Source: Felis catus (lineage: Eukaryota). Taken from it: DNA of 64,000 nt. The stretch lies in the NCBI RefSeq assembly GCF_018350175.1, contig NC_058368.1:98334001-98398000 (forward strand). The letters are read 5' to 3'. The notes under the pieces were generated by a model. That model was given only the letters and a program-made list of their open reading frames with translations. It was not told the DNA's origin and did no database searches. The translations under genes and the position numbers were made by a program. The stretch's first letter is position 1; every line of letters starts with the position of its first letter. Shown one piece after another: positions 3,245 through 52,810 of the stretch.

Positions 3245-4290
3245 AGTAGCAATGTGTTGAGTATTTATGATACATGTAAACATAAGATGTATGAAAACAG
3301 TAGTACAAAGAATGGAAAGTGAGAATTGGAATTATATTTTGTAGGGTTTTTACACTAAATGTGAAATAATATATTAGTTAAAGATACATATTGTAAACCC
3401 TATGAGACTCCAAACACAATTTTTAAAGTGGTGTAAATAAAAGTCAATAGAGGAAATAGAATTAAATCTTAAAAAATGCTTGATTAATTCAAAAGAAGGC
3501 AGAAAAAAAAGAACATATTGGAAAAAAGTAACAGGTAGGAAAATGGTAAATTTTAATCAATCATATTATATCAACCATATAAATATAAACACCCCAATGT
3601 AAAGACACAGATTATGAAATTAGACTAAATAAAGCATGAGCCAATTATATGTTGCCTATAGGAAACCTAAGTGAAACATAAAGTCACATATAGTTGACAG
3701 GTATAAGGATGAAAAAAGGTATACTATATAAACATAAAGTAAAATAAAGCCAAGGTAGATATGTCTATCTCAGATATGTAATCTTCAGAAGGAGGAACAT
3801 AACCAAAGATAATGAGGGACATTCCATTATAATAAAGGGGTCCATTCACCAAGAACATAAAACAATTCTAAATATGTATGCACCCAACATTCATTTAAAA
3901 ATGTATGAGCAGACCAAAAAAGGGGGTGACATTTCACATCCATCAAAATGCCTACAAACAGACTGATCATATTAAATGTTATCAAGAATGTGTAGCACTC
4001 AGAACTCCTATATGTTGATCATGTGAATATAAACTAGTACAATCACTTAGGGAACAAGTTTGGAAGTACTTACAAAGTTAAACATATATTTCTAATATGC
4101 AGCCATTTCACCTTTGGATATTAAGAATAAGAAAATAGAAAGCACATGTCTGTACCAAGACTTGTATATGAATGTTCATAGCAATTTTATTTGGATTGCC
4201 AAAACTTGGTAACAACTTAAATGTTGATCAACAATTGGCTGGATAAAAAAACATCGTGTGGAATATAACAGAGCAGTAAAAGGAATGAAC
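3245..4290 (+). mobile_element. Ancient L1M (L1ME-like) remnant: inter-ORF/ORF2 endonuclease region joined to ORF2 3' end
   Basis: Degenerate ORF2-start motifs (ataataaaggggtccattcaccaagaacataaaacaattctaaatatgtatgcacccaac), then ORF2-end motifs (aatgttcatagcaattttattt, aaaaggaatgaac). Confidence 0.75.
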
Positions 4291-5254
4291 ATTTTTTTTC
4301 AAATTTTTACTTAAATTCCAGTTAGTTAACATAGAGTGTAATATTGGTTTAAGTGGTACATTTTAGTGATTCATCACTCACATATAACACCTACTGCTCA
4401 ACAGGACAGGTGTCCTCCTTAATACCCATCACCCATTTAGCCCATCCCCTACCCACCTTCCTCCACCAACCCTCAGTTTGTTCTCTCTCATTAAGAGTCT
4501 CCTATGGTTTGTTTCCCCTCTCTTTTTTTTCTCTTCCTGTATGTTCATCTGTTTTGTTTCTTAAATTCCCCATATGAGTGAGATCATATAGTATTTGCCT
4601 TTCTCTGTCTAACTTATTTCACTTAGCATGATACACTCTAGCTCCATCCACATTGTTGCAAGTGGCAAAATGTCACTCTTTTTGATGGCTGGGTAATATT
4701 TCATTTTCATATCTTCTTTTTCCATTCAATAGTCATTAGACATGTGGGCTCTTTCCATAGTTTGGCTGTTGTTGATAGTGCTTCTATAAACATCTGGGTG
4801 GGTGTACCCCGTTTGAATCTGTATTTTTGTACCCTTTGAGTAAATACCCAGTAGTGGAATTGCTGGATCATTGGGGAGTTCTATTTTTAACTTGTGGAGG
4901 AACCTCCATACTATTGTCCAGAGTAGCTGCACTAATTTGCATTCCTACCAGCGGTGCAAAAGAGTTCCCCTTTCTGTACATCCTCACCAATACTTGTTTC
5001 TTTTGTTGTTAATTTTAGTCATTCTGACAGGTGTGAGGTGTTATCTCATTGTGGTTTTGATTTGTATTTCCCTGATGATGAGTGATGTTGAGGATCTTCT
5101 CATGTGTCTGTTAGCCATCTGGATGTCTTCTTTGGAAAAATGTCTATTCATGTCTTCTGTTCATTTCTTCACTGGATTATTTGTTTTTGGGGTGTTGAGT
5201 TTGATAAATTCTTGATAGCTTTTGGATACTAACCCTTTATCAGATATGTCATTT
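4291..5254 (-). mobile_element. Carnivore L1 3' end (host element, part 1)
   Basis: T-tail, 3'UTR, ORF2p C-terminal remnant (ORF 4726-4932, [23 protein letters not shown]); interrupted at atcagatatgtcattt. Confidence 0.92.
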
Positions 5255-5279
5255 TTTTTCTTTTTCTTCTTTTATATTT

Positions 5280-6260
5280 TTAAAATAAAGTTTTATACAT
5301 ATATAGTTTGAAAGGTCAAATCGCCTATGTTTTATTATTAAAAAAAAAAAAATTACTCCTCTGTGCTCCATTTCCTCCCCTCCCTGCAGACAACTGTGTT
5401 TACCGGCTTAAGTGGATTATTTTAGGATTTATTTCACATCTATAATTATCACACTTTTAATGCTACTTGATTTTCTGATTTTAGGCTTTATCAACAATCT
5501 ACTATCGTGGAGGGTAAGTATGTAGCTCTCCCCTCTCCACTTTCCTGTCCCCCAATTTAGGTTACGTTGTAACTCCAGCTGAATCAATATCCAGTGTTTA
5601 CGTTATGATAATGTAAACATTATTCACAACAAATATATGGAAGTACTTTCCTTTCCTTCACATTTTTTTCCCTTACAGAGTTAAAAATAGTCTTGATTTT
5701 TGTTTTGCTTAGTTTTGTATGTGCTCAGTACTAACTCACCCTCTCTCTCCCAGTTGTCCCTTATTTGAACTAAAGCTTCCCTCAAAACATTGTGACACAT
5801 CAGGTATTTCTAGTAATTTCTTCTTCCTGAAGAAGTCTTCCCAGGCCTTCTGGCTAGTTTCAGTCAAGTGTGGGTGCCCTCTGATGTGATGCAAGGTGTT
5901 ATCCTGGGATGGGTCTTCCCCATCATTCTTCTCCATCTCCTTTCATCTTTCTCCTGTGCTGGACTGTCCCTGTTGTATCTCATGCTGTCTTCTTTCTTGG
6001 TCTACTCTTTCATTTCGGTGGAGAGCATCTCCCAGTAGCTTGCTCAGAAATGTTATCTGGGGGGTAAAGATTTGAAGGCTTTTCTTGTCTGAACATACCT
6101 TCGGCCTACCTTCGTATTTGATTTTGATTGGTAGTTTGACTGGGTATAGAATATTAAGTTGTTAGTAGTTTTCCTTCAGAACTTTGAAGGTGTTATTCTA
6201 CTGCCTGTCAAACTTCTAGTTTTCCCATTGAGAAGTCATGCTGATACCTTATCTGGTTCC
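5280..6260 (-). mobile_element. HAL1 (half-L1) remnant, inside a transduced insert
   Basis: Resembles the recalled HAL1 3' consensus (acacatcaggtatttc, tcctgggat, ggtggagagcatctcccagtagcttgctcagaaa, gtttgactgggtatagaat, ttgagaagtc). Confidence 0.75.
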
Positions 6261-6755
6261 TCTTTTTCTTCTTTTTTTTTCTTATTATAAATTTATTTTT
6301 TAAGTTCTCAGTTATGCCATTAAAAGGAATAACATTAGTAACAGCAGTGAGGTTGTTGGATAAAAACAAAAAGAAATGGGGGATTACAGATAGACTTTTG
6401 GATCTCCATCAGCTTTTGATGATGCAGTTTATTTTGGTATTTTGTTTCAGTTTCATAGATTTAGAAGTAGCTGTACATGATCATAGTTTGTTATGCTCAG
6501 TATAGACTATTCTTAAATTAAGTTGATACTATTTTTTTAAAATGAAGAATGACAGGAAGTTCTTGCTTAGAGTTTAATTCCTAGCAATATGTTAACAATG
6601 GTCAAGTTCTTTTACCTAAATTTACAGGTTGAGTAAGTACCACCCAAGACAAGCATGCTGATACACAGTCCCTTGTGATCATTATCTACTTTGTGCCGTG
6701 AGGACAGCGTATGTCTCCTAGTGTCCTGAACCTTATGTGACAAGTGGGAGATAGA

Positions 6756-7401
6756 TTTTCTTTCTTTTTTTTTAAATTAACTTGTTTTATTTTTTTATTT
6801 TTTAATTTACATCCAGTTTAGTTAGCATATAGTGCAACAATGATTTCTGGAGTAGATTCCTTATTCCCCTTACCCATTTAGCCCATTCCCCCCTCCCACA
6901 AGCCCTCCAGCAACCCTCAGTTTGTTCTCCATATTTATGAGTCTCTTCTGTTTTGTCCCCCTCCCTGTTTTTATATTATTTTTGTTTTCCTTCCCTTATG
7001 TTCATCTGTTTTGTCTCTTAAAGTCGTCATATGAGTGAAGTCATATGATTTTTGTCTTTCTCTGACTAATTTCACTTAGCATAATACCTTCCAGTTCTAT
7101 CCATGTAGTTGCAAATGGCAAGATTTCATTCTTTTTGATTGCTGGGTAATACTCCATTGTATATATATACCACCTCTTCTTTATCCATTCATCCATCCAT
7201 TTGGGCTCTTTCCATACTTGGCTATTGTTGATAGTGCTGCTGTAAACATGGGGGTGCATGTGTCCCTTCGAAACAGCACACCTATATCATGTGGATAAAT
7301 GCCTAGTAGTGCAGTTGCTGGGTCGTAAGGTAGTTCTATTTTTAGTTTTTTGAGGAACCTCCATACTGTTTTCCAGAGTGGCTGCACCAGCTTTCATTCC
7401 C
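6756..7401 (-). mobile_element. 5'-truncated felid-type L1 3' end with poly(A)
   Basis: T-tail 6756-6803, 3'UTR, ORF2p C-terminus (ORF 7181-7387, [23 protein letters not shown]). Confidence 0.93.
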
Positions 7402-7874
7402 ATCAGATATGTCATTTGTAAATATCTTCTCCCATTCTATCGGTTGTTTCTTTAGTTTTGCTGATTGTTTCCTTTGCTGTGCAGAAGCTTTTTATCTTGA
7501 TGAGGTCCCAAGAGTGCATGTTTGCTTTTGTTTCCCTGGCCTACTGCAATGTGTCTAGTAAGAAGTTGCTCTGGCCAAGGTCAAAGGGGGGGCTGCCTGT
7601 GGTCTCCTCTAGGATTTTGATGCTTTCCTCTCTCATATTTAGGTCTTTTATCCATTTTGAATTTATTTTTGTGTATGGTGTAAGACAGTACTTTCTTCGG
7701 CATGTTGCTGTCTAGTTTTCCTAGCACCATTTCCTGAAGAGACTGTGTTTTTCCAATGGATATTCTTACCGGTTTTGTCAAAGATTAATTGGCCATATGT
7801 TTGTGTGTCCATTTCTGGGTTCTTGCTTCTGTTCCAACGATCTGTGTTTGTTTGTTTTTTGTTTATTTTTGTGT

Positions 7875-7913
<39 letters not shown>

Positions 7914-8633
7914 CAGTACCATACTGTCTTGATGATTACAGCTTTGTAATACAGCTTGAGGTCCAGAACTGTGATGCCTCAAGCTTTGGTTTACTTTTCC
8001 AACATTACTTTGGTTATTTGGTGTCTTCTCCCATACAAATTTTGGGATTGTTTCTTCTAGCTTTGTGAATAATGCTGGTGTTATTTTGATATGGATTACA
8101 TTGAATGTGTAGATTGCTTTGGGTAGTATCAACATTTTAACAATATTTGTTCTTCCAACCCATAGCATGGAATATTTTTCCTTTTTTTGTGTGTCTTCTT
8201 CAGTTTCTTTCATGAGCTTTGTATAGTTTTCAGTATATTGATTTCTCGCCTCTTTGGTTAGGTTTATTCCTAGGTATTTTATGGTTTTTGGTGCAATTGT
8301 AAATGGGATTGATTCCTTGATTTCTCTTTCTGTGCTTCATTATTGGTGTATAGAAATGCATCCAATTTCTCTACATTGATTTTGTATCTTATATCTTTGC
8401 TGAAATCATGTATCAGTTCTAGAGTTTTTTGGTGGAGTCTTTTGGGTTTTCCACATAGAGTATCATGTCATCTGTGAAGAGTGAAATTTTGACTTCCTCT
8501 TTAGTTTTCAGAGTACAGATATTTTACTTCTTTGATTAGACTTATTCTTAGGTACCTTGTTGGTTTTGGTGCAATTGTAAATGGAATTAATTTTTTTTAT
8601 TTCTTTTTCTGTTGCTTCATTATTGGTATATAG
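7402..8633 (-). mobile_element. Carnivore L1 ORF2 region (host element, part 2)
   Basis: Resumes the L1 sequence broken at 5254 (atcagatatgtcatttgtaaatatcttctcccattc); ORF2p-like peptide GRTNIVKMLILPKAIYTFN. Confidence 0.9.
7870..7912. repeat. (TG)n microsatellite inside L1
   Basis: Direct reading. Confidence 0.95.
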
Positions 8634-8970
8634 CTCTCCATGCAAGAAATAACATGGGAGAATCTAAAAAGAATTGAGTTGAATGAAAAAAAAAAACAAA
8701 AAATAAATAATGTCTACTTCTGTTTGTATGGAATTCTAAAACTGCAAACAATAACAATTCTAGAAAATGCAAACTAATTTATAGTGACAGTATGTTTATC
8801 AATGTCTCCCTGAGGCAAATGGAAGAGAGACACTAGGGATAAAAATTGAACATGAACTAACTTTGGAGGAGGGATGGTTTCATGGTTGTCTATACATTGA
8901 AACTTACATGATTGTACACTGTAAATATGTGCAATTTATTATATGTCAATTTTTCAAAGAGTGAAAAATA
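8634..8970 (+). mobile_element. Ancient L1ME-like 3' end, continuation of 3245-4290
   Basis: catgcaag..aacatgggagaatct..., aaatgcaaactaatttatagtgacag, tgtacactgtaaatatgtgcaatttattatatgtcaatt. Confidence 0.75.
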
Positions 8971-12227: not shown

Positions 12228-12445
12228 ATTTTTTAAATAATTTTTAAAAATGTTTATTTATTTATTTTGAGAGAGACAGTGTGAGCAGGGGAGGGACAGA
12301 GAGAGGAGAGAGAGAATCCCAAGCAGGCTCCGTTGCTGCCAGCTGCAGAGCCTGAGGCAGGCCTCTAACCCACCAACTGTGAGATCATGACTTGAGTGGA
12401 AACCAAGGGTCAGTCACCTAATGGACTGGGACACCCAGGTGCCCC
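12228..12445 (-). mobile_element. CAN-SINE
   Basis: Ends cacccaggtgcccc; TSD tgttctgctgaatt (12212) / tgttctgccgattt (12446). Confidence 0.95.
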
Positions 12446-12474
12446 TGTTCTGCCGATTTTTAAAGTAATTTTAT

Positions 12475-12657
12475 GGGAGTTCCTGGGTGGCTCAGTCCGT
12501 TAAGCGTCTGATTTCAGCTCAGGTCATGATCTCATGGTCTGTGGGTTTGAGCCCCGCATTGGGTTCTGTGCTGACAGCTCAGAGCCTGTTTCGGATTCTG
12601 TGTCTGTCTCTTTGCCCCTATCCTGCTCATTCTCTGTCTCAAAAATAAATAAACATT
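12475..12657 (+). mobile_element. CAN-SINE
   Basis: gggagttcctgggtggctcag head; TSD ttaaagtaattttat (12460) / ttaaagtaatttttat (12656). Confidence 0.95.
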
Positions 12658-15367: not shown

Positions 15368-15495
15368 CTTCTATTAAATTGGTTATACAGATTAATTGTC
15401 CCAAATATCTGTGGAATCCACCCCTCCATTTCTGTTCTTCCACCACCATGTTGTTTTGGGTTCTTACCTTTCATCTAGGTCATTGCACTAGCCAT

Positions 15496-15498
15496 GTT

Positions 15499-15537
<39 letters not shown>

Positions 15538-15600
15538 TTACCATTTTCTTTTTAATTTACATCCAAGTTAGTGTATGGTGCAACAATGATTTCAGGAGTA
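15496..15600 (-). mobile_element. (TTTA)n tail and about 55 bp terminal stub of an L1
   Basis: ttttaatttacatccaagttagtgtatggtgcaacaatgatttcaggagta matches the L1 terminus at 6800-6855. Confidence 0.85.
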
Positions 15601-16249
15601 TGTTTCTTTTTTTGTTTTTCAATATATGAAGTTTATTGTCAAGTTGGTTTCCATACAACACCCAGTGCTCATCCCAAAAGGTGCCCTCCTCAATACCCAT
15701 CACCCACCCTCCCTTCCCTCCCACCCCCATCAACCCTCAGTTTGTTCTCAGTTTTTAAGAGTCTCTTATGCTTTGGGAATGCAAATTGGTGAAGCCACTC
15801 TGGAAAACAGTGTGGAGGTTCCTCAGAAAATTAAAAATAGACCTACCCTATGACCCAGCAATAGCACTGCTAGGAATTTACCCAAGGGATACAGGAGTAC
15901 TGATACATAGGGCCACTTGTACCCCAATGTTTATAGCAGCACTCTCAACAATAGCCAAATTATGGAAAGAGCCTAAATGTCCATCAACTGATGAATGGAT
16001 AAAAAAAATTGTGGTTTATATACACAATGGAATACTACGTGGCAATGAGAAAGAATGAAATATGGCCCTTTGTAGCAACATGGATGGAACTGGAGAGTGT
16101 GATGCTAAGTGAAATAAGCCATACAGAGACAGACAGATACCATATATACCATATGTTTTCACTCTTATGTGGATCCTGAGAAACTTAACAGAAACCCATG
16201 GGGGAGGGGAAGGAAAAAAAAAAAGAGGTTAGAGTGGAAGAGAGCTAAA
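15601..16249 (-). mobile_element. Young L1_Fc-type 3' end with twin-priming 5' inversion (inverted part about 15775-16249 reads on +)
   Basis: Minus part ends agagtctcttatgctttgg; plus part ends gagtggaagagagctaaa, and the two are contiguous in L1 sense; ORF2p C-terminus ORF 15768-16058. Confidence 0.93.
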
Positions 16250-27040: not shown

Positions 27041-27830
27041 TCCCTAAAGCTGACAAGTTTGCTTATAGGTGAATTTACTCAACTCTTATGAATATTTGAG
27101 AAGATACACTTTCTTAATCAGCTGTCTCATCAAATAAAATAAACTTTCTCTATAATTGAAACATGTCCAGCATCTTGAACAAAACCAACTTTCTTTTAAA
27201 TATGCAAGGTTAGCTTTCAGAGAACTAGAGGAACAACTTGGATGTGCCGAGGAAAGCATGCGTGTTTGTTAGCTAAGTCTTCATTTTCCAGAGCAAAAAT
27301 AAGTAGGCACTTTCCATAAGTCTAGAAAGAGGATTTTGATGTTATTCAGATGTTCAGAAGTCATCATTAGAAGAGCCCAAGTGTGAAGTGGTTTCACATG
27401 GTACCTTCACAGTCCAGACTTCGACACGGAGGATCGAGCAAAGGTTGTTGCTTTTTATTCATAAATCCCTGTGTGTTCCTAGATTGTTGAACTAGGTGGC
27501 CTCATTGGCATCATTTAATCAGCTGTGCTGGATATCTTCTGTCTCTTCACATCTATTTCCCACTGTTCCTCATGGCTCTCTTCTTATTAGGTTGATCTGT
27601 GTGGTTTGTGTCAACAGACTGTCACACCCTCAAGCCAATGGAGCTGTTGAAAGCAGGGGAGAGAGTGAGATCTGAGACTTCATCTGGTGGTTGCTCTGTA
27701 AGCTGCATCAGAACACCTGTCACATCACTAATTGCCACCCCTCCTATCCAGGTGGCTTTCTCTACTCAAAATCTCTTTCTTTCTCTGTTAAGATAACTTC
27801 TTCCTCTCCTCTTTTCACTGGGCTTGGGGA

Positions 27831-32300: not shown

Positions 32301-32379
32301 AAAATTTTGAAGAAATTGAGAAAAAACCGAAACAGGCTCTGTTGTCTTGTCCAGTAGTACACATTAAAGGAGGAATTGA

Positions 32380-32588
32380 GGGGCACCTGGGTGGCTCAGT
32401 CAGTTAACTGACTGTGGCTGAGGTTATGATCTCACAGTTTGTGGGTTCTAGCCCTGTGTTGGACTCTGTGCTGACAGCTTGGAGACTGGAGACTGCTTCA
32501 GTTTCTGTGTCTCCTTTTCTCTGCCCCTCCCCAACCTGCTCTCCATCTCTCTCTTTCTCAAAAATAAATAAAAAATATTAAAAAAAAA
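32380..32588 (+). mobile_element. CAN-SINE
   Basis: TSD aaaggaggaattga at 32366-32379 and 32695-32708 (3' copy displaced by an L1 stub). Confidence 0.95.
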
Positions 32589-32601
32589 TGAAAGGAGGAA
32601 T

Positions 32602-32684
32602 CTACTCCTGAAATTATTGTTTCACTATATGCTAATTTGGATGTAAATTTTAAAAAATAAAAAATAAAAAATAAAATTAAAATT
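32602..32684 (+). mobile_element. Ultra-short L1 3' terminal insertion
   Basis: ctactcctgaaattattgtttcactatatgctaatttggatgtaaatt plus A-rich tail; reverse-complement match to the L1 terminus at 6800-6860. Confidence 0.85.
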
Positions 32685-32778
32685 AAAAAAAATGAAAGGA
32701 GGAATTGAAATGTGTTCAGCCTTAATAAATCTATAGGTGAATGACTTTGAAACTTGCATTTTAAAACTTAGCTTTTGG

Positions 32779-34322
32779 TTAGCATAATACCCTTCATTTC
32801 TACCCACGTTGCTACAAATGGCCAGATTTCATTTTTTCTCATTGCCAAGTAGCATTCCATTGTATATATAAACCACTTCTTCTTCTTTTGTTAATATGAA
32901 ATTTATTGTCAAATTGGTTTCCATGCAACACCCAGTGCTCATCCCAACAGGTGCCCTCCTCAATACCCATCACCCACCCTCCCCTCCCTCCCACCCCCCA
33001 TCAACCCTCAGTTTATTCTCAGTTTTTAAGAGTCTCTTATGGTTTGCCTCCTTCCCTCTCTAACTTTTTTTTTCCTTCCCCTCCCCCATGGTCTTCTGTT
33101 AAGTTTCTCAGGATCCACATTACAGTGAAAACATATGGTATCTGTCTTTCTCTCTATGACTTATTTCACTTAGCATAACACTCTCCAGTTCCATCCACGT
33201 TGCTACAAAAGGTCATATTTCATTCTTTCTCCTTGCCAAGTAGTATTCCATTGTGTATTATAAACCACAATTTCTTTATCCATTCATCAGTTGATGGACA
33301 TTTAGGCTTTTTCCATAATTTGGCTATTGTTGAAAGTGCTGCTATCAACATTGGGGTACAAGGGCCCCTATGCATCAGCACTCCTGTCTCCCTTAGGTAA
33401 ATTCCCAGCAGTGCTATTGCTGGGTCATATGGTAGTTCTATTTTTAATTTTTTGAGGAACCTCCACACTGTTTTCAGAGCGGCTGCATGAGTTGGCATTC
33501 CCACCAATAGTGTAAGAGTGTTCCCGTTTCTCCACATCCTCTCCAGCATCTATAGTCTCCTGATTTGTTCATTTTAGCCACTCTGACCGGAGTGAGGTGG
33601 TATCTCAGTGTGATTTTGATTTGTATTTCCCTGATGAGGAGTGACGTTGAGCATCGTTTCATGTGTCTGTTGCCCATCTGGATGTCTTCTTTAGAAAAGC
33701 GTCCATTCATGTCTTCTGCCCATTTCTTCACTGGATTATTTGTTTTTTGGGTGTGGAGTTTAAATGAAATGAGTCAGGCAGAGAAAGATACCATATGTTT
33801 TCACTCATATGTGGATCCTGAGAAATTTAACAGAAGACCATGGGGGAGGGGAAGGAGGAAAATAAAGTTACAGAGAGGGAGGGAGGCAAACCATAAGAGA
33901 CTCTTTTTTTTTTTAAACATTTATTTATTATTGAGAGACAGAGAGACACAGAGAGTGAGCAGGGGAGGGGTAGAGAGAAGGGGAGACACAGAATATAAAG
34001 CAGGCTACAGGCTCTGAGATGTCAGCACAGAGCCCAATGTGGGGCCTGAAGTCACAAACTGTGAGATCATGACCTGAGCCGAAGTCAGACACTTAACCGA
34101 CTGAGCCACCCAGGTGCCCCAAGAGACTCTTAAATACTGAGAACAAACTGGGACTTGATAGGGGTGGGGGAGAGGGGAAAGTGGGTTATGGGCATTGAGG
34201 ACACCTGTTGGGATGAGCACTGGATGCTGTATGTAAACCAATTTGAAAATAAATTGTATTTAATATAAGAAATAAAAAAATAAATAAAAAGAATGTGTAT
34301 AAAGAATAAAAAAAAATAAAAT
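32779..34322 (+). mobile_element. Composite L1 insertion with 5' inversion (32779-33761 inverted, containing a second L1 3' end)
   Basis: TSD aaaacttagcttttgg at 32763-32778 and 34323-34338; ORF2p C-terminal ORFs 33220-33549 and 33474-33731. Confidence 0.9.
33906..34120 (-). mobile_element. CAN-SINE inserted in L1 3'UTR
   Basis: Perfect TSD aagagactctt at 33895-33905 and 34121-34131. Confidence 0.97.
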
Positions 34323-35191
34323 AAAACTTAGCTTTTGGGTTAGCCCAATGCTAGCCACTGTTACCAAGAATCCTTAGCCAGGATAAGTCAATTTTTTTCT
34401 CACCCAGAAATCCAAGGCAGTTGTGACTTCTGTCAGGGACAGCTGTCTTCTCTGTTGTCTGTCACATAGATGCTCATAATAATGGAAACTCTGATGAGGT
34501 CTTGAGGACATCATGGTAGTCTAATCCTAGTGAAACAAATGAGGTCAGATTTTGAGACATTTTGGTTCGCTAGGCCTGGAAATTGCATTTTAACACCATC
34601 TCATGGTCACACGATAATGCGAGGAAGGCTGAAAAATTAGTGTCTGATTGTGTCCTTGAAGAAGAGAATATATATACTTGTGAATAGCAAGCAATTTTTG
34701 CCACAGGTTACCCTACTGCTTCTGAAATACTAATCAGTAGCCTTTGCCTCATATTTAAAGCAGACCCATCCTTTTTCCAGTGAGACTTCCTACAGCCCCT
34801 TCCATCACTGCCCCCCTTTCCTAGTCCTTCACAGGATATCTGGAGATGTCTACTTCTCTCAGTCAGGACCAGTCCTCTGTTACTATATTTTAAATCCTGT
34901 GACCTAGAAAATAGCATACTTTAGTAAAGCAGGTGCATAGTAATCATAAGAAACCTCTACTTTGACAATGTGTGAATGGGAAACTCATGGCTTACTTTAG
35001 TGCAGAAAAATGCTGGAATCATTCTGGAAAGGCAATCTTTAGACTTGTCTACACTGGCAGATGAGGAAGTTTCATGATTAGATATTGGTTCTGTGTTCTG
35101 GAAGAACTTCCTTGTGAGTTGATCTCCATGGACTTAGCTCCCGTCCTCTGGAAGGATCTTCCTTCTATATTTACGTCTGCAGACAGTTTTA

Positions 35192-35430
35192 TTTTTTTAT
35201 TTTAAAAAAATCTTTATTTATTTTGAGAGAGAGAGAGAAAGAGAGGCAGAGAGAGGGAAGCACAAGTTAGGGAGGGACAGATACAGAAAGGAGGTAGAGA
35301 ATCCCAACCAGGCTCCCAGTGCTATCGGCACAGAGCCCGATGCGGGGCTCAATCTCATGAACTGTGAGATCATGACCTAAGCCCAAATCAAGAGTCAGAT
35401 GCTTAACCCACTGAGCCACCTGGGTACCCC
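35192..35430 (-). mobile_element. CAN-SINE
   Basis: TSD gtctgcagacagtttta (35175) / gtctgcagacactttta (35432). Confidence 0.96.
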
Positions 35431-35462
35431 TGTCTGCAGACACTTTTAAAATGGGCCCTGGA

Positions 35463-35645
35463 GGGGTGCCTGAGTGGCTCAGTGGGTTAAGCATTGGAAC
35501 TCTGCTTAGGTCATGATCTGCATTGGGCTCTGTGCTGACAGCGATGAGTGTGCTTGGGATTCTTTGTTTCCCCATCTCTCTCCTCCTCCTCCACTCGAGC
35601 TTGTGTGCTCAAAATAAATAAATAAACTTAAAAAAATTTTTTAAA
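35463..35645 (+). mobile_element. CAN-SINE (internally deleted)
   Basis: TSD taaaatgggccctgga (35447) / taaaatgggtcctgga (35647). Confidence 0.94.
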
Positions 35646-36253
35646 GTAAAATGGGTCCTGGAGAATATTCTCTTAGGGAGCTGTGCAGTTTCCAAAGTCC
35701 ATTTCTTAATCTTATGCAATTGGGAGCCCAAGGATTGTTTTATATTCAGTCTTTTTTTTTTTTTATTTTAATTTTATTTTTTGGGCTAAACTCATAGTTC
35801 TTGACTGTAGAATTACCTCAAAAAAAGTTTTGGGGGGTTCTAATTTAGTGGTTTACGTATATTCCAAGTGCTAGTAACCACAGACAATGTCTTTTTCCTT
35901 TTTCCTTTAGGTTTACTTCTCTAGCTTGCTTTATTTCTCTGCTTCTTTACTTCCATGCTTATTTCTTTCAACATAGTAGTAGTTGCCATCTGAACAAGAG
36001 GTTTTGGTAAGAAGGCAGCATCCTTAATTTTTGCTGCGGGGCTCAGTTCCTTGTCTAATGGAGAAAGCTTACTGTGACTTTGTGCTCAAAGCCTTTTTTT
36101 TCCAGTTTTGACCCTTATTAGGGGGTTTGAAGAAATTGGCTTCTCCAACACTGCCACACCGACAGTGGGAAGTAGATGTGAAGAGACAGAAGATATCCAG
36201 CACAGCTGATTAAACGTTGCTAATTTGGGTGTCACCATTTTGGCATCCTTTGT

Positions 36254-52177: not shown

Positions 52178-52810
52178 ATTCATTGTCTTGTGATATAAAA
52201 TCTCCTCTGTGTAGCTACTATATTAACATGTGAACTTGTTAGTGATTGTCTTAGAAAAGTTGCCCTATTTTTTATTTTTTATTTTTTTTTTAAATAAAAA
52301 ATAAAAACAAGAAAAGTAGAAAAGTTGCCCTATCACATGCTGTAGTTCCTCAGTTCCTCATTGGTAATGAATAATACAAGAACCTTAGAATACTTATATT
52401 TGATTACCAAGCCTCCTCCTGACTTACATGCTATTTGTTGGCAAGCGTTGAGTCTTCTGTACATAAAGATGGGTGTCTTTTATCAATTCTAGAAGTGTCC
52501 TAGCCATTATCTGTTTTGTTTTTCTTTTCTCATTTTCTTTCTGCCTTTCTGGAACTCCAGTCAGATTCCCACAGGTCCTTTCCACTCTACTTTCCATGGG
52601 TTCTCTCGGCTTGTTTTTCTTATTTATTATAGTCTTGCCACCATCACAGTTTTTATTTATAATTTTTTATTGTTGCCTCTATAATGTGAGTGCTAGAAGG
52701 GTAGTGATTATTCTCTGAACCATCATAGCATCTCCCACAGTGTCTGGCAGCAAGTGGATGATCAATAAATATATATTTTTTGAAAGTAAAAAAAAAATGA
52801 GATGAGTTGC

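Follow-up and report, generated by a model that had tools for sequence, protein, structure and literature searches.

The closest described counterparts of the locus considered here are transductions of L1 and SVA, of which serial, concatenated and orphan forms have all been described in humans. In the partnered L1 3′ transductions used for comparison, the parts described in PMC4859970 and PMC13756887 are a truncated L1, the tail of its source, unique flanking DNA, an AATAAA signal and a second tail, with a nick site and a duplication. Serial 3′ transductions of L1 are described in PMC4859970, and nested SVA transductions bounded by poly(A) tails in bioRxiv 2020.12.16.423102; together with the concatenated SVA cases of PMC12593883, these consist of tail-closed blocks of cargo within one outer duplication. 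Orphan 3′ transductions, as described in PMC12350158, PMC12593883 and bioRxiv 2024.08.27.596794, are made up of non-L1 DNA or dead repeats that have a tail and a duplication, without an attached active L1. The locus that we analysed, in a 64-kb stretch of Felis catus DNA (hereafter the window), has features of each. It is best described as an L1 that landed inside an older L1 with about 1.5 kb of foreign DNA, probably in two steps. The process itself is known and its mechanism is ordinary; the locus is a tidy example of it, and the block is an inert fossil with no function implied.

Read on the minus strand, the insert consists of a 5′-truncated L1, a first tail, 472 nt of non-L1 DNA, an AATAAA signal, a second tail, about 980 nt of DNA resembling HAL1 and a third tail. 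It is bracketed by a 16-nt target-site duplication, with one copy on its 3′ side (5239–5254) and the other on its 5′ side (7402–7417). The two copies are identical at 16 of 16 positions and extendable at neither end, and the 16-mer occurs at only these two places on the plus strand of the window. The host is, judging by its sequence, an older L1 of carnivore type, both halves of which lie on the minus strand and were assigned by identity and translation: the 3′ half (4290–5238) comprises the end of ORF2, the 3′ UTR and a tail near 4290, and the 5′ half (7418 to approximately 8645) the reverse-transcriptase region of ORF2. Over 848 nt the 3′ half is 75% identical to a further L1 (32922–33761), and it is 74% identical to the inserted L1. 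When the insert and one copy of the duplication are excised in silico, the ORF2-like frame of the host is unbroken on the minus strand, with no stop or shift at the junction. Chance homology between two L1s was considered as the origin of the outer repeat and ruled out, as the host frame is continuous and just 16 nt are doubled.

For L1 TPRT we looked for a duplication of about 4–20 nt, a nick at YYYY/RR or a known variant of it, and restoration of the target on excision, and found a 16-nt duplication, an endonuclease-type site and a restored target. The nick site, ATTT/GT on the plus strand, is non-canonical; Table 1 of PMC4859970 gives the same site for a disease insertion. Because the duplication brackets the whole block and the host ORF2 reads through the empty site, the cargo appears to have been brought by L1 machinery, and we regard it as highly probable that all of it arrived by L1-mediated insertion, which is the core common to the routes weighed below. 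The perfect 16-bp repeat splitting a single L1 and the order of parts in the insert, both reported in the preliminary description, are thus confirmed, the non-L1 cargo given there as about 475 bp being 472 nt long. Dating by perfect duplications was dropped as too loose, and the CpG content of the segments was uninformative as a marker of age.

The inserted L1 (6804–7401, minus strand), assigned by translation and a PDB match, is 5′-truncated near ORF2 codon 1146 and retains a frameshifted end of ORF2 and the 3′ UTR. Positions 7396–7199 of the minus strand match residues 1147–1212 of human ORF2p (PDB 8sxt, E 2e-20), while another frame of the element gave no matches in the PDB; the 3′ end is of the same type as in short copies at 32596 and 15545. 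Tail 1 (6756–6803, minus strand, 48 nt) is the tail of the source L1, probably including the start of that element's own duplication, and has no string of the 15-mer type discussed below in common with tail 2 or tail 3.

The 472 nt that follow (6284–6755, minus strand) have the character of a 3′ transduction: there is no second copy elsewhere in the window, and no L1 protein match was obtained in the three minus-strand frames, such searches being weak on decayed DNA. That this block might be upstream ORF1 sequence of HAL1 was rejected with moderate confidence, no L1 match having been obtained in three frames. A canonical AATAAA (6292–6297, minus strand) lies 11 nt ahead of the 9-A run of tail 2, and a second AATAAA within the cargo, at 6433–6428 on the minus strand, was read through. 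The structural parts of a partnered 3′ transduction are therefore all present, namely the 3′ end of an L1, a tail, non-L1 DNA, a poly(A) signal and a second tail. Unlike the described partnered cases, a third segment, with a tail, follows here; the defining proof of such an event is the mapping of its source. The cargo (5281–6755) was present in 20 of 24 listed runs, with a word share of 0.88–0.97 across 10 studies, in a search that covered presence and not junctions or copy number, and it is therefore real DNA and no invention of the assembly; 17 of these 20 runs are from organism A, one is from organism B and two are unlabelled, the other four rows of the listing being unindexed additions; no distant relative was among the listed runs. 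Rfam gave no matches over the whole window, and none of 10 ORFs of the cargo had an exact counterpart in a set of 15 billion proteins. One 22-nt cargo pattern had no matches in metagenome contigs, a blank that is expected for mammalian DNA and constitutes no evidence.

HAL1 elements, as described in PMC5753468 and PMC13756887, lack ORF2; after the C-terminal domain of ORF1 they have non-coding DNA and then an A-rich end. The segment at 5282–6260 (minus strand) is built in this manner, being 5′-truncated, with a decayed end of ORF1 followed by about 700 nt of non-coding sequence and no ORF2; it differs from HAL1 in that only the last 1 kb is found here, and in a much younger context. A PDB search identified the remnant of the L1 ORF1p C-terminal domain, with in-frame stops, at about 5994–6224 on the minus strand (2lr6, E 3.3e-5; 2ldy, E 6.4e-4; 2yko, E 9.5e-4), the best match being the L1TD1 domain. 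Between about 5300 and 5960, three frames covering 660 nt yielded no L1 matches that would indicate ORF2, in a search that is weaker on older DNA and that does find ORF2p in the inserted L1. Pfam, applied to 12 frames, returned no L1 family and two sub-threshold DUF matches that we ignored; such blanks weigh little, since the ORF1 and ORF2 pieces found through the PDB were missed by Pfam. The window holds no second copy of the segment. On the basis of its structure, we take 5282–6260 to be a probable HAL1. HAL1 was probably extinct before the carnivore L1s. Because its ORF1 carries stops, and in view of this extinction, the piece would not have been a self-mover, and the much younger sequence around it indicates that this copy was carried. 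The analysis thus agrees with the preliminary description both in recognising about 1 kb of HAL1-like DNA and in holding that this decayed, ORF1-only piece did not come by its own activity. No canonical polyadenylation signal lies close to tail 3; TATAAA, a weak variant (5292–5297, minus strand), is found 10 nt upstream of it and AATAAA 49 nt upstream.

Tail 2 (6261–6283, minus strand, about 23 nt) and the A-rich tail 3 (5255–5281, minus strand, 27 nt) have in common an exact 15-mer with three G, which brackets the HAL1-like piece. Its 5′ copy (6261–6275) makes up the last 15 nt of tail 2 and adjoins the HAL1-like piece, stopping at the first base of that piece as in the geometry of a duplication, and its 3′ copy, within tail 3 (5259–5273, minus strand), is a candidate second target-site duplication. 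The 15-mer occurs at only these two places in the window, both strands having been searched, and ungapped extension leaves 21 of 24 and 28 of 34 positions identical. This repeat is of low complexity and was spotted post hoc, and the tail boundaries used for shuffling were set by the analyst; with these qualifications, shuffles that kept the junction geometry reproduced it in 201 and 845 of 400,000 trials, and those that allowed a repeat anywhere in the tails in 68 of 20,000, or 132 of 20,000 for A/G cores. Among the 1711 pairs formed by the 59 A-rich tracts of the window, 19 share at least 15 nt with at least three non-A letters, and the pair of tails 2 and 3 is the only one of these with G. 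The shared 15-mer, though of low complexity, leans against the two tails being independent, and we infer that it is a target-site duplication.

The explanation that we tentatively prefer, giving it nearly an even chance, is a partnered 3′ transduction followed by a separate insertion of orphan type, in which the HAL1 piece entered the A-tail left by the first event. A source L1 would have read past its own poly(A) signal into the 472-nt flank, and the RNA would have been polyadenylated after the AATAAA at 6297–6292; ORF2p would have nicked the plus strand of the older L1 at ATTT/GT and reverse-transcribed the RNA as far as a point near ORF2 codon 1146, with the 16-nt outer duplication as the result. 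At a later time the A-tail, by then with three G, may have been nicked again, candidate sites being TTTT/TT, TTTT/CT or TCTT/AT. A different RNA, whose 3′ terminus coincided with that of a dead HAL1 copy and which was supplied by orphan 3′ transduction or some other read-through, would have been copied in with the same orientation and 5′-truncated inside ORF1, so that 15–24 nt of tail were duplicated and came to lie on either side of the HAL1 piece. The 4 A that separate the inner repeat from the outer duplication (5255–5258, minus strand) would be a remnant of the tail of the first insertion, and the 8-nt A-rich stretch at 5274–5281 (minus strand) would be the HAL1-like piece's own tail, as opposed to the start of tail 3 if the transduction was serial. 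The order of these events is our inference, as is the kind of RNA that entered second.

What recommends two separate insertions is that such an inner 15-mer is exactly what would be expected if tail 2 had received a second insertion, and the rarity of the G-type 15-mer, the presence of only 4 A after the inner repeat and a precedent in the same window were also counted in favour. In that precedent (32581–32705), a short L1 3′ end lies inside the A-tail of a SINE (32380–32590) and is accompanied by an exact 21-nt repeat (at 32581 and 32685) that begins in the SINE A-tail; it is one of 28 SINE-like intervals, judged by eye from their flanks. Like an orphan 3′ transduction, the segment proposed to have entered second (5274–6260) would have a tail and a duplication; unlike one, its own tail is about 8 nt long, supplemented by the A-rich repeat, and its only signal is the non-canonical TATAAA. 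The shortness of this tail and the weakness of this signal count against a second insertion, as does the fact that, when T-type matches are counted, 19 of the 1711 tract pairs reach equal length. Germline orphans do exist, 48 of them, with 466 L1 transductions, being given in PMC12350158 out of 5,311 L1 insertions, but on the same figures they are rare, at about 1 per 100 L1 insertions, and concatenated transductions are not, being found in 27 of 217 transduction-bearing human SVAs (PMC12593883).

The last of these figures speaks for a serial 3′ transduction, which stays close to the preferred account and is quite possible. A grandparent L1 would have transduced the 472 nt and landed in a HAL1, and a parent would have read through both earlier signals to the HAL1 3′ end, so that one final insertion displays three tails from three generations and the common 15-mer is due to chance. 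In keeping with such a lineage are the ordinary lengths of the tails (48, about 23 and 27 nt), the presence of two or more cargo blocks that each end in a tail within a single exact outer duplication, the spacing of AATAAA ahead of tail 2, and the L1 and SVA precedents cited above. So are the data of PMC2836564 on insertion of L1 into L1-type DNA, where sense is about twice as frequent as antisense and HAL1 is among the over-represented old targets. However, a serial lineage gives no expectation of finding an exact 15-nt repeat of tail sequence on both sides of the last block, and here this 15-mer (201 to 845 of 400,000 shuffles; sole G-type among 1711 tract pairs) would go unexplained. The parent must in addition have been a transcribed full-length L1 that skipped a signal which worked in the first step, and mappable transductions are uncommon in dog, at about 1.8% of the dimorphic L1s of PMC13141329. 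Because a serial model gives no reason for the G-interrupted 15-mer of tails 2 and 3, the succession from grandparent to parent to present copy that the preliminary description read from the three tails is not established, while its L1-mediated insertion into a split host L1 stands.

A single read-through of 1.5 kb, from a donor L1 through 472 nt of unique DNA into an old 5′-truncated HAL1, would need the fewest events but is unlikely. Tail 2 would then be a native A-tract, either the A-rich stretch of the HAL1 ORF1 or an ancient target site, and the inner repeat a matter of chance or a very old duplication. Tail 2 does translate as lysine/arginine-rich sequence, in frame with the ORF1 remnant and just ahead of it; PMC3415434 documents that priming can occur internally, on A-rich stretches of RNA, and older repeat fragments are present in 68% of the SVA transductions of PMC12593883. 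Against this, three coincidences would have to be accepted: that a canonical AATAAA stands at the distance proper to a poly(A) site, that an A-rich tract of 20 nt falls precisely on the break of the HAL1, and that an exact 15-mer is due to chance or has survived since the HAL1 era. Upstream of tail 2, searches that are weak on decayed DNA gave no match to ORF1. Two further routes, which taken together seem less probable again, both account for the inner repeat. The donor HAL1 may have been a duplication-flanked retrocopy with the read-through ending at most 4 nt from its 3′ duplication, but the transcript end must then fall almost exactly on the old duplication. Alternatively, a single reverse-transcription event may have jumped from one RNA to another, copying one and the same G-containing tail two times; ORF2p slippage can duplicate non-A interruptions in tails (PMC3415434) and chimeras of L1 with other RNAs are catalogued (PMC13174262), but two switches would be needed, and in the chimeras described in the latter source the foreign RNA lies 5′ of L1 and not between tail copies. 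Most improbable is that the HAL1-like piece is one copy of a young, non-autonomous family of the cat lineage, which arose when a HAL1 fossil was transcribed and which L1 mobilised in trans; an extinct half-L1 would in that case have been revived as a SINE-like element targeting A-tails, with the inner duplication as its own insertion scar. The 64 kb, with a single copy of the piece, lend no support to its being multi-copy.

If two separate insertions are the correct explanation, a serial lineage does not necessarily follow from the presence of several A-tails within one duplication, and as a practical caution an inner duplication should be looked for before a pipeline reports a transduction as concatenated. 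If the transduction was serial, the locus would show, in a carnivore, an L1 lineage that can be followed through three loci; among the papers listed by a targeted literature search, none dealt with L1 transductions in felids, which does not prove that there is none. By either route, dead repeat DNA has been moved by a younger L1 and can mislead the dating of repeat families by nesting. The importance of the locus would be greater only if the HAL1 piece were multi-copy, and is otherwise modest. The inner 15-mer, the AATAAA read through at 6433–6428 and the weak signal of tail 3 are additions to the preliminary description.

The block that interrupts the older, minus-strand host L1 (halves at ~4290–5238 and 7418–~8645) is bounded by an outer duplication of 16 nt, with 5239–5254 identical to 7402–7417 without possible extension, and this repeat occurs only at these two places on the plus strand of the whole window. 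When the insert and one duplication copy are deleted, the ORF2-like minus-strand translation of the host continues in a single frame across the junction, thus both halves belong to one L1. The insertion nick site is ATTT/GT, a variant that also occurs in Table 1 of PMC4859970, at a disease insertion in humans. Read along the minus strand, the inserted block begins with a 5′-truncated L1, in which 7396–7199 matches human ORF2p 1147–1212 (E 2e-20), and continues with tail 1 (6756–6803), 472 nt of non-L1 DNA carrying AATAAA signals at 6433–6428 and 6297–6292, tail 2 (6261–6283), a HAL1-like stretch of about 980 nt and, last, tail 3 (5255–5281). The preliminary description had the anatomy right in its exact duplication, continuous host frame and order of parts, and the insert is a real, well-preserved compound L1 insertion. 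Its cargo, the 472-nt segment plus the HAL1-like piece, occurs only once in the window. A run search, which covers neither junctions nor copy number, found the cargo, at word shares of 0.88–0.97, in 20 of the 24 runs that it listed (10 studies, two organism labels); it is thus real DNA and probably not a private event.

The piece between tails 2 and 3 presumably belongs to a HAL1 subfamily of great age. At ~6224–5994 it translates as the C-terminal domain of an L1 ORF1p, interrupted by in-frame stops; this matches the L1TD1 domain best (E 3e-5), followed by human ORF1p (E 6e-4). In three frames each, no ORF2 match was found downstream of this remnant and no ORF1 match upstream of tail 2, and a Pfam search in 12 frames returned no L1 family. 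An ORF1p domain with no ORF2 following it fits the ORF1-only definition of HAL1 in PMC5753468. Since this decayed ORF1-only fragment is enclosed by a duplication interrupting a younger L1, L1 machinery must have brought it in; we consider this very probable, in support of the earlier claim to that effect.

A feature overlooked in the preliminary description is that tails 2 and 3 have an exact 15-mer, interrupted by three G, in common (6261–6275 and 5259–5273); it is found nowhere else on either strand of the window. Its upstream copy ends where the HAL1 piece begins; the downstream copy is followed by four A and then the outer duplication; ungapped extension gives 21/24 and 28/34 identical positions. 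No comparable string is common to tail 1 and either of the other tails. When both tails were shuffled, a common string of at least 15 nt with at least three non-A letters arose in 68 of 20,000 trials (132 of 20,000 when only the A/G cores were used). With the match required to end at the junction, the counts were 201 and 845 of 400,000, rising to 403 and 1406 of 400,000 when its end was tolerated within 2 nt. Among the 59 A-rich tracts of the window, 19 of 1711 pairs reach 15 nt, and the other 18 lack G, being mostly AAAT-type SINE and L1 tails. These statistics concern a low-complexity repeat spotted post hoc, with tail boundaries chosen by the analyst.

Our best explanation, which we hold tentatively, is that two insertions are stacked. 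The first, a partnered 3′ transduction, would have brought in 472 nt and ended at the AATAAA 11 nt upstream of tail 2; later, a separate RNA, its 3′ end being that of a dead HAL1, would have inserted into tail 2, duplicating 15–24 nt of it. Tail 2 offers TTTT/TT, TTTT/CT and TCTT/AT as candidate nick sites, and a T-strand nick within the tail would, from the logic of target-primed reverse transcription, impose the same orientation. Tails do get hit in this window: at 32368–32705 (plus strand), a short L1 3′ end (32596–32684) lies inside the A-tail of a SINE (32380–32590), one of 28 SINE-like intervals. The accompanying exact repeat of 21 nt (32581 and 32685) begins in the SINE tail and overlaps with the 3′ duplication of the SINE itself. 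Against this account, the HAL1 piece has an own tail of just 8 nt, its TATAAA signal is weak, and orphans are rare in the germline (48 versus 5,311 L1 insertions; PMC12350158). We consider it very improbable that the piece belongs to a recently arisen family derived from HAL1 and mobilised in trans. The three-generation L1 lineage originally proposed accounts for three tails, all of ordinary length, and has precedents in serial L1 transductions (PMC4859970), nested SVA transductions (bioRxiv 2020.12.16.423102) and concatenation in 27 of 217 transduction-bearing SVAs (PMC12593883); however, it must put the inner repeat down to chance, and on that ground we rate it a slightly weaker possibility. 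In a rough weighing, a prior of 3–12% for serial events times a 0.05–0.35% chance of the repeat stands against a tail hit (a few percent, from 1/28) times the orphan share (1–2%) and times the probability of finding a short tail with an intact repeat. The two products appear to be of the same order of magnitude, so the routes are close and their order could be reversed.

One read-through of 1.5 kb would need the fewest events, and tail 2, translated in the frame of ORF1, does give a run rich in lysine and arginine, but this route leaves the 15-mer, the position of the AATAAA and the A-tract at the break all to coincidence, which makes it unlikely. If the donor already carried a retrocopy, or if reverse transcription switched templates twice, the inner repeat would be explained, and slippage duplicating non-A tail letters is documented in PMC3415434; other coincidences are required, and we regard these two routes, taken together, as slightly less likely still.

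In structure the insert resembles partnered L1 3′ transductions and is a further case of a known process; serial, concatenated and orphan transductions are all described in the literature. Nesting of L1 in L1 is sense-biased (21,559 sense versus 9,899 antisense; PMC2836564). In dogs, mappable transductions accompany about 1.8% of dimorphic L1s, and the majority are parentless (PMC13141329), so an absent parent L1 alone would not refute transduction. None of 10 cargo ORFs was present in the protein collection and one cargo pattern gave no match in metagenome contigs, blanks that are not evidence against a donor. Among the four papers listed in a literature search, none was on felid L1 transductions, judging by titles and abstract openings. 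A presence/absence method that tells sequential from contemporaneous insertions appears in PMC13174262, and PMC13756887, PMC4161310, bioRxiv 2024.08.27.596794 and PMC12016303 leave our reading unaffected.

The host L1 also contains, near its 5′ end, an internal duplication of 144 nt whose copies (8224–8365 and 8502–8645) lie 278 nt apart and are 78% identical; it further has a TG microsatellite at 7870–7912. Immediately to the left of the host L1, 3000–4280 is A-rich plus-strand DNA that by eye resembles the start of an old L1 ORF2 together with an L1 3′ piece in inverted orientation; within it, 4022–4267 matches other L1s at ~60%. Elsewhere, an L1 at 15494–16249 has an inverted 5′ part of twin-priming type (15606–15775 versus 15774–16249). 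Directly after it, another short L1 3′ end (15506–15611) carries a (TAAA)n tail; this may be a further case of insertion into a tail, although the shared flank is just 6 nt. The L1 at 32762–34338 has inverted segments (32876–33761 versus 33761–34322), a 17-nt repeat at 32762 and 34322 that is its likely outer duplication, an internal SINE (33909–34120) with an 11-nt duplication, and an additional 130-nt L1 piece (32753–32884). In each of two head-to-head SINE pairs (12235–12652 and 35204–35642), the members have opposite orientations, are separated by ~30 nt and have adjoining target sites, and a 63-nt inverted repeat (27504–27566 and 36162–36224; 94% identical, 8.6 kb apart) falls outside the listed SINE intervals. 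At 52252–52333, a 17-nt direct repeat, its copies 65 nt apart, flanks A/T-rich tracts of opposite direction and may represent a tail-only insertion.
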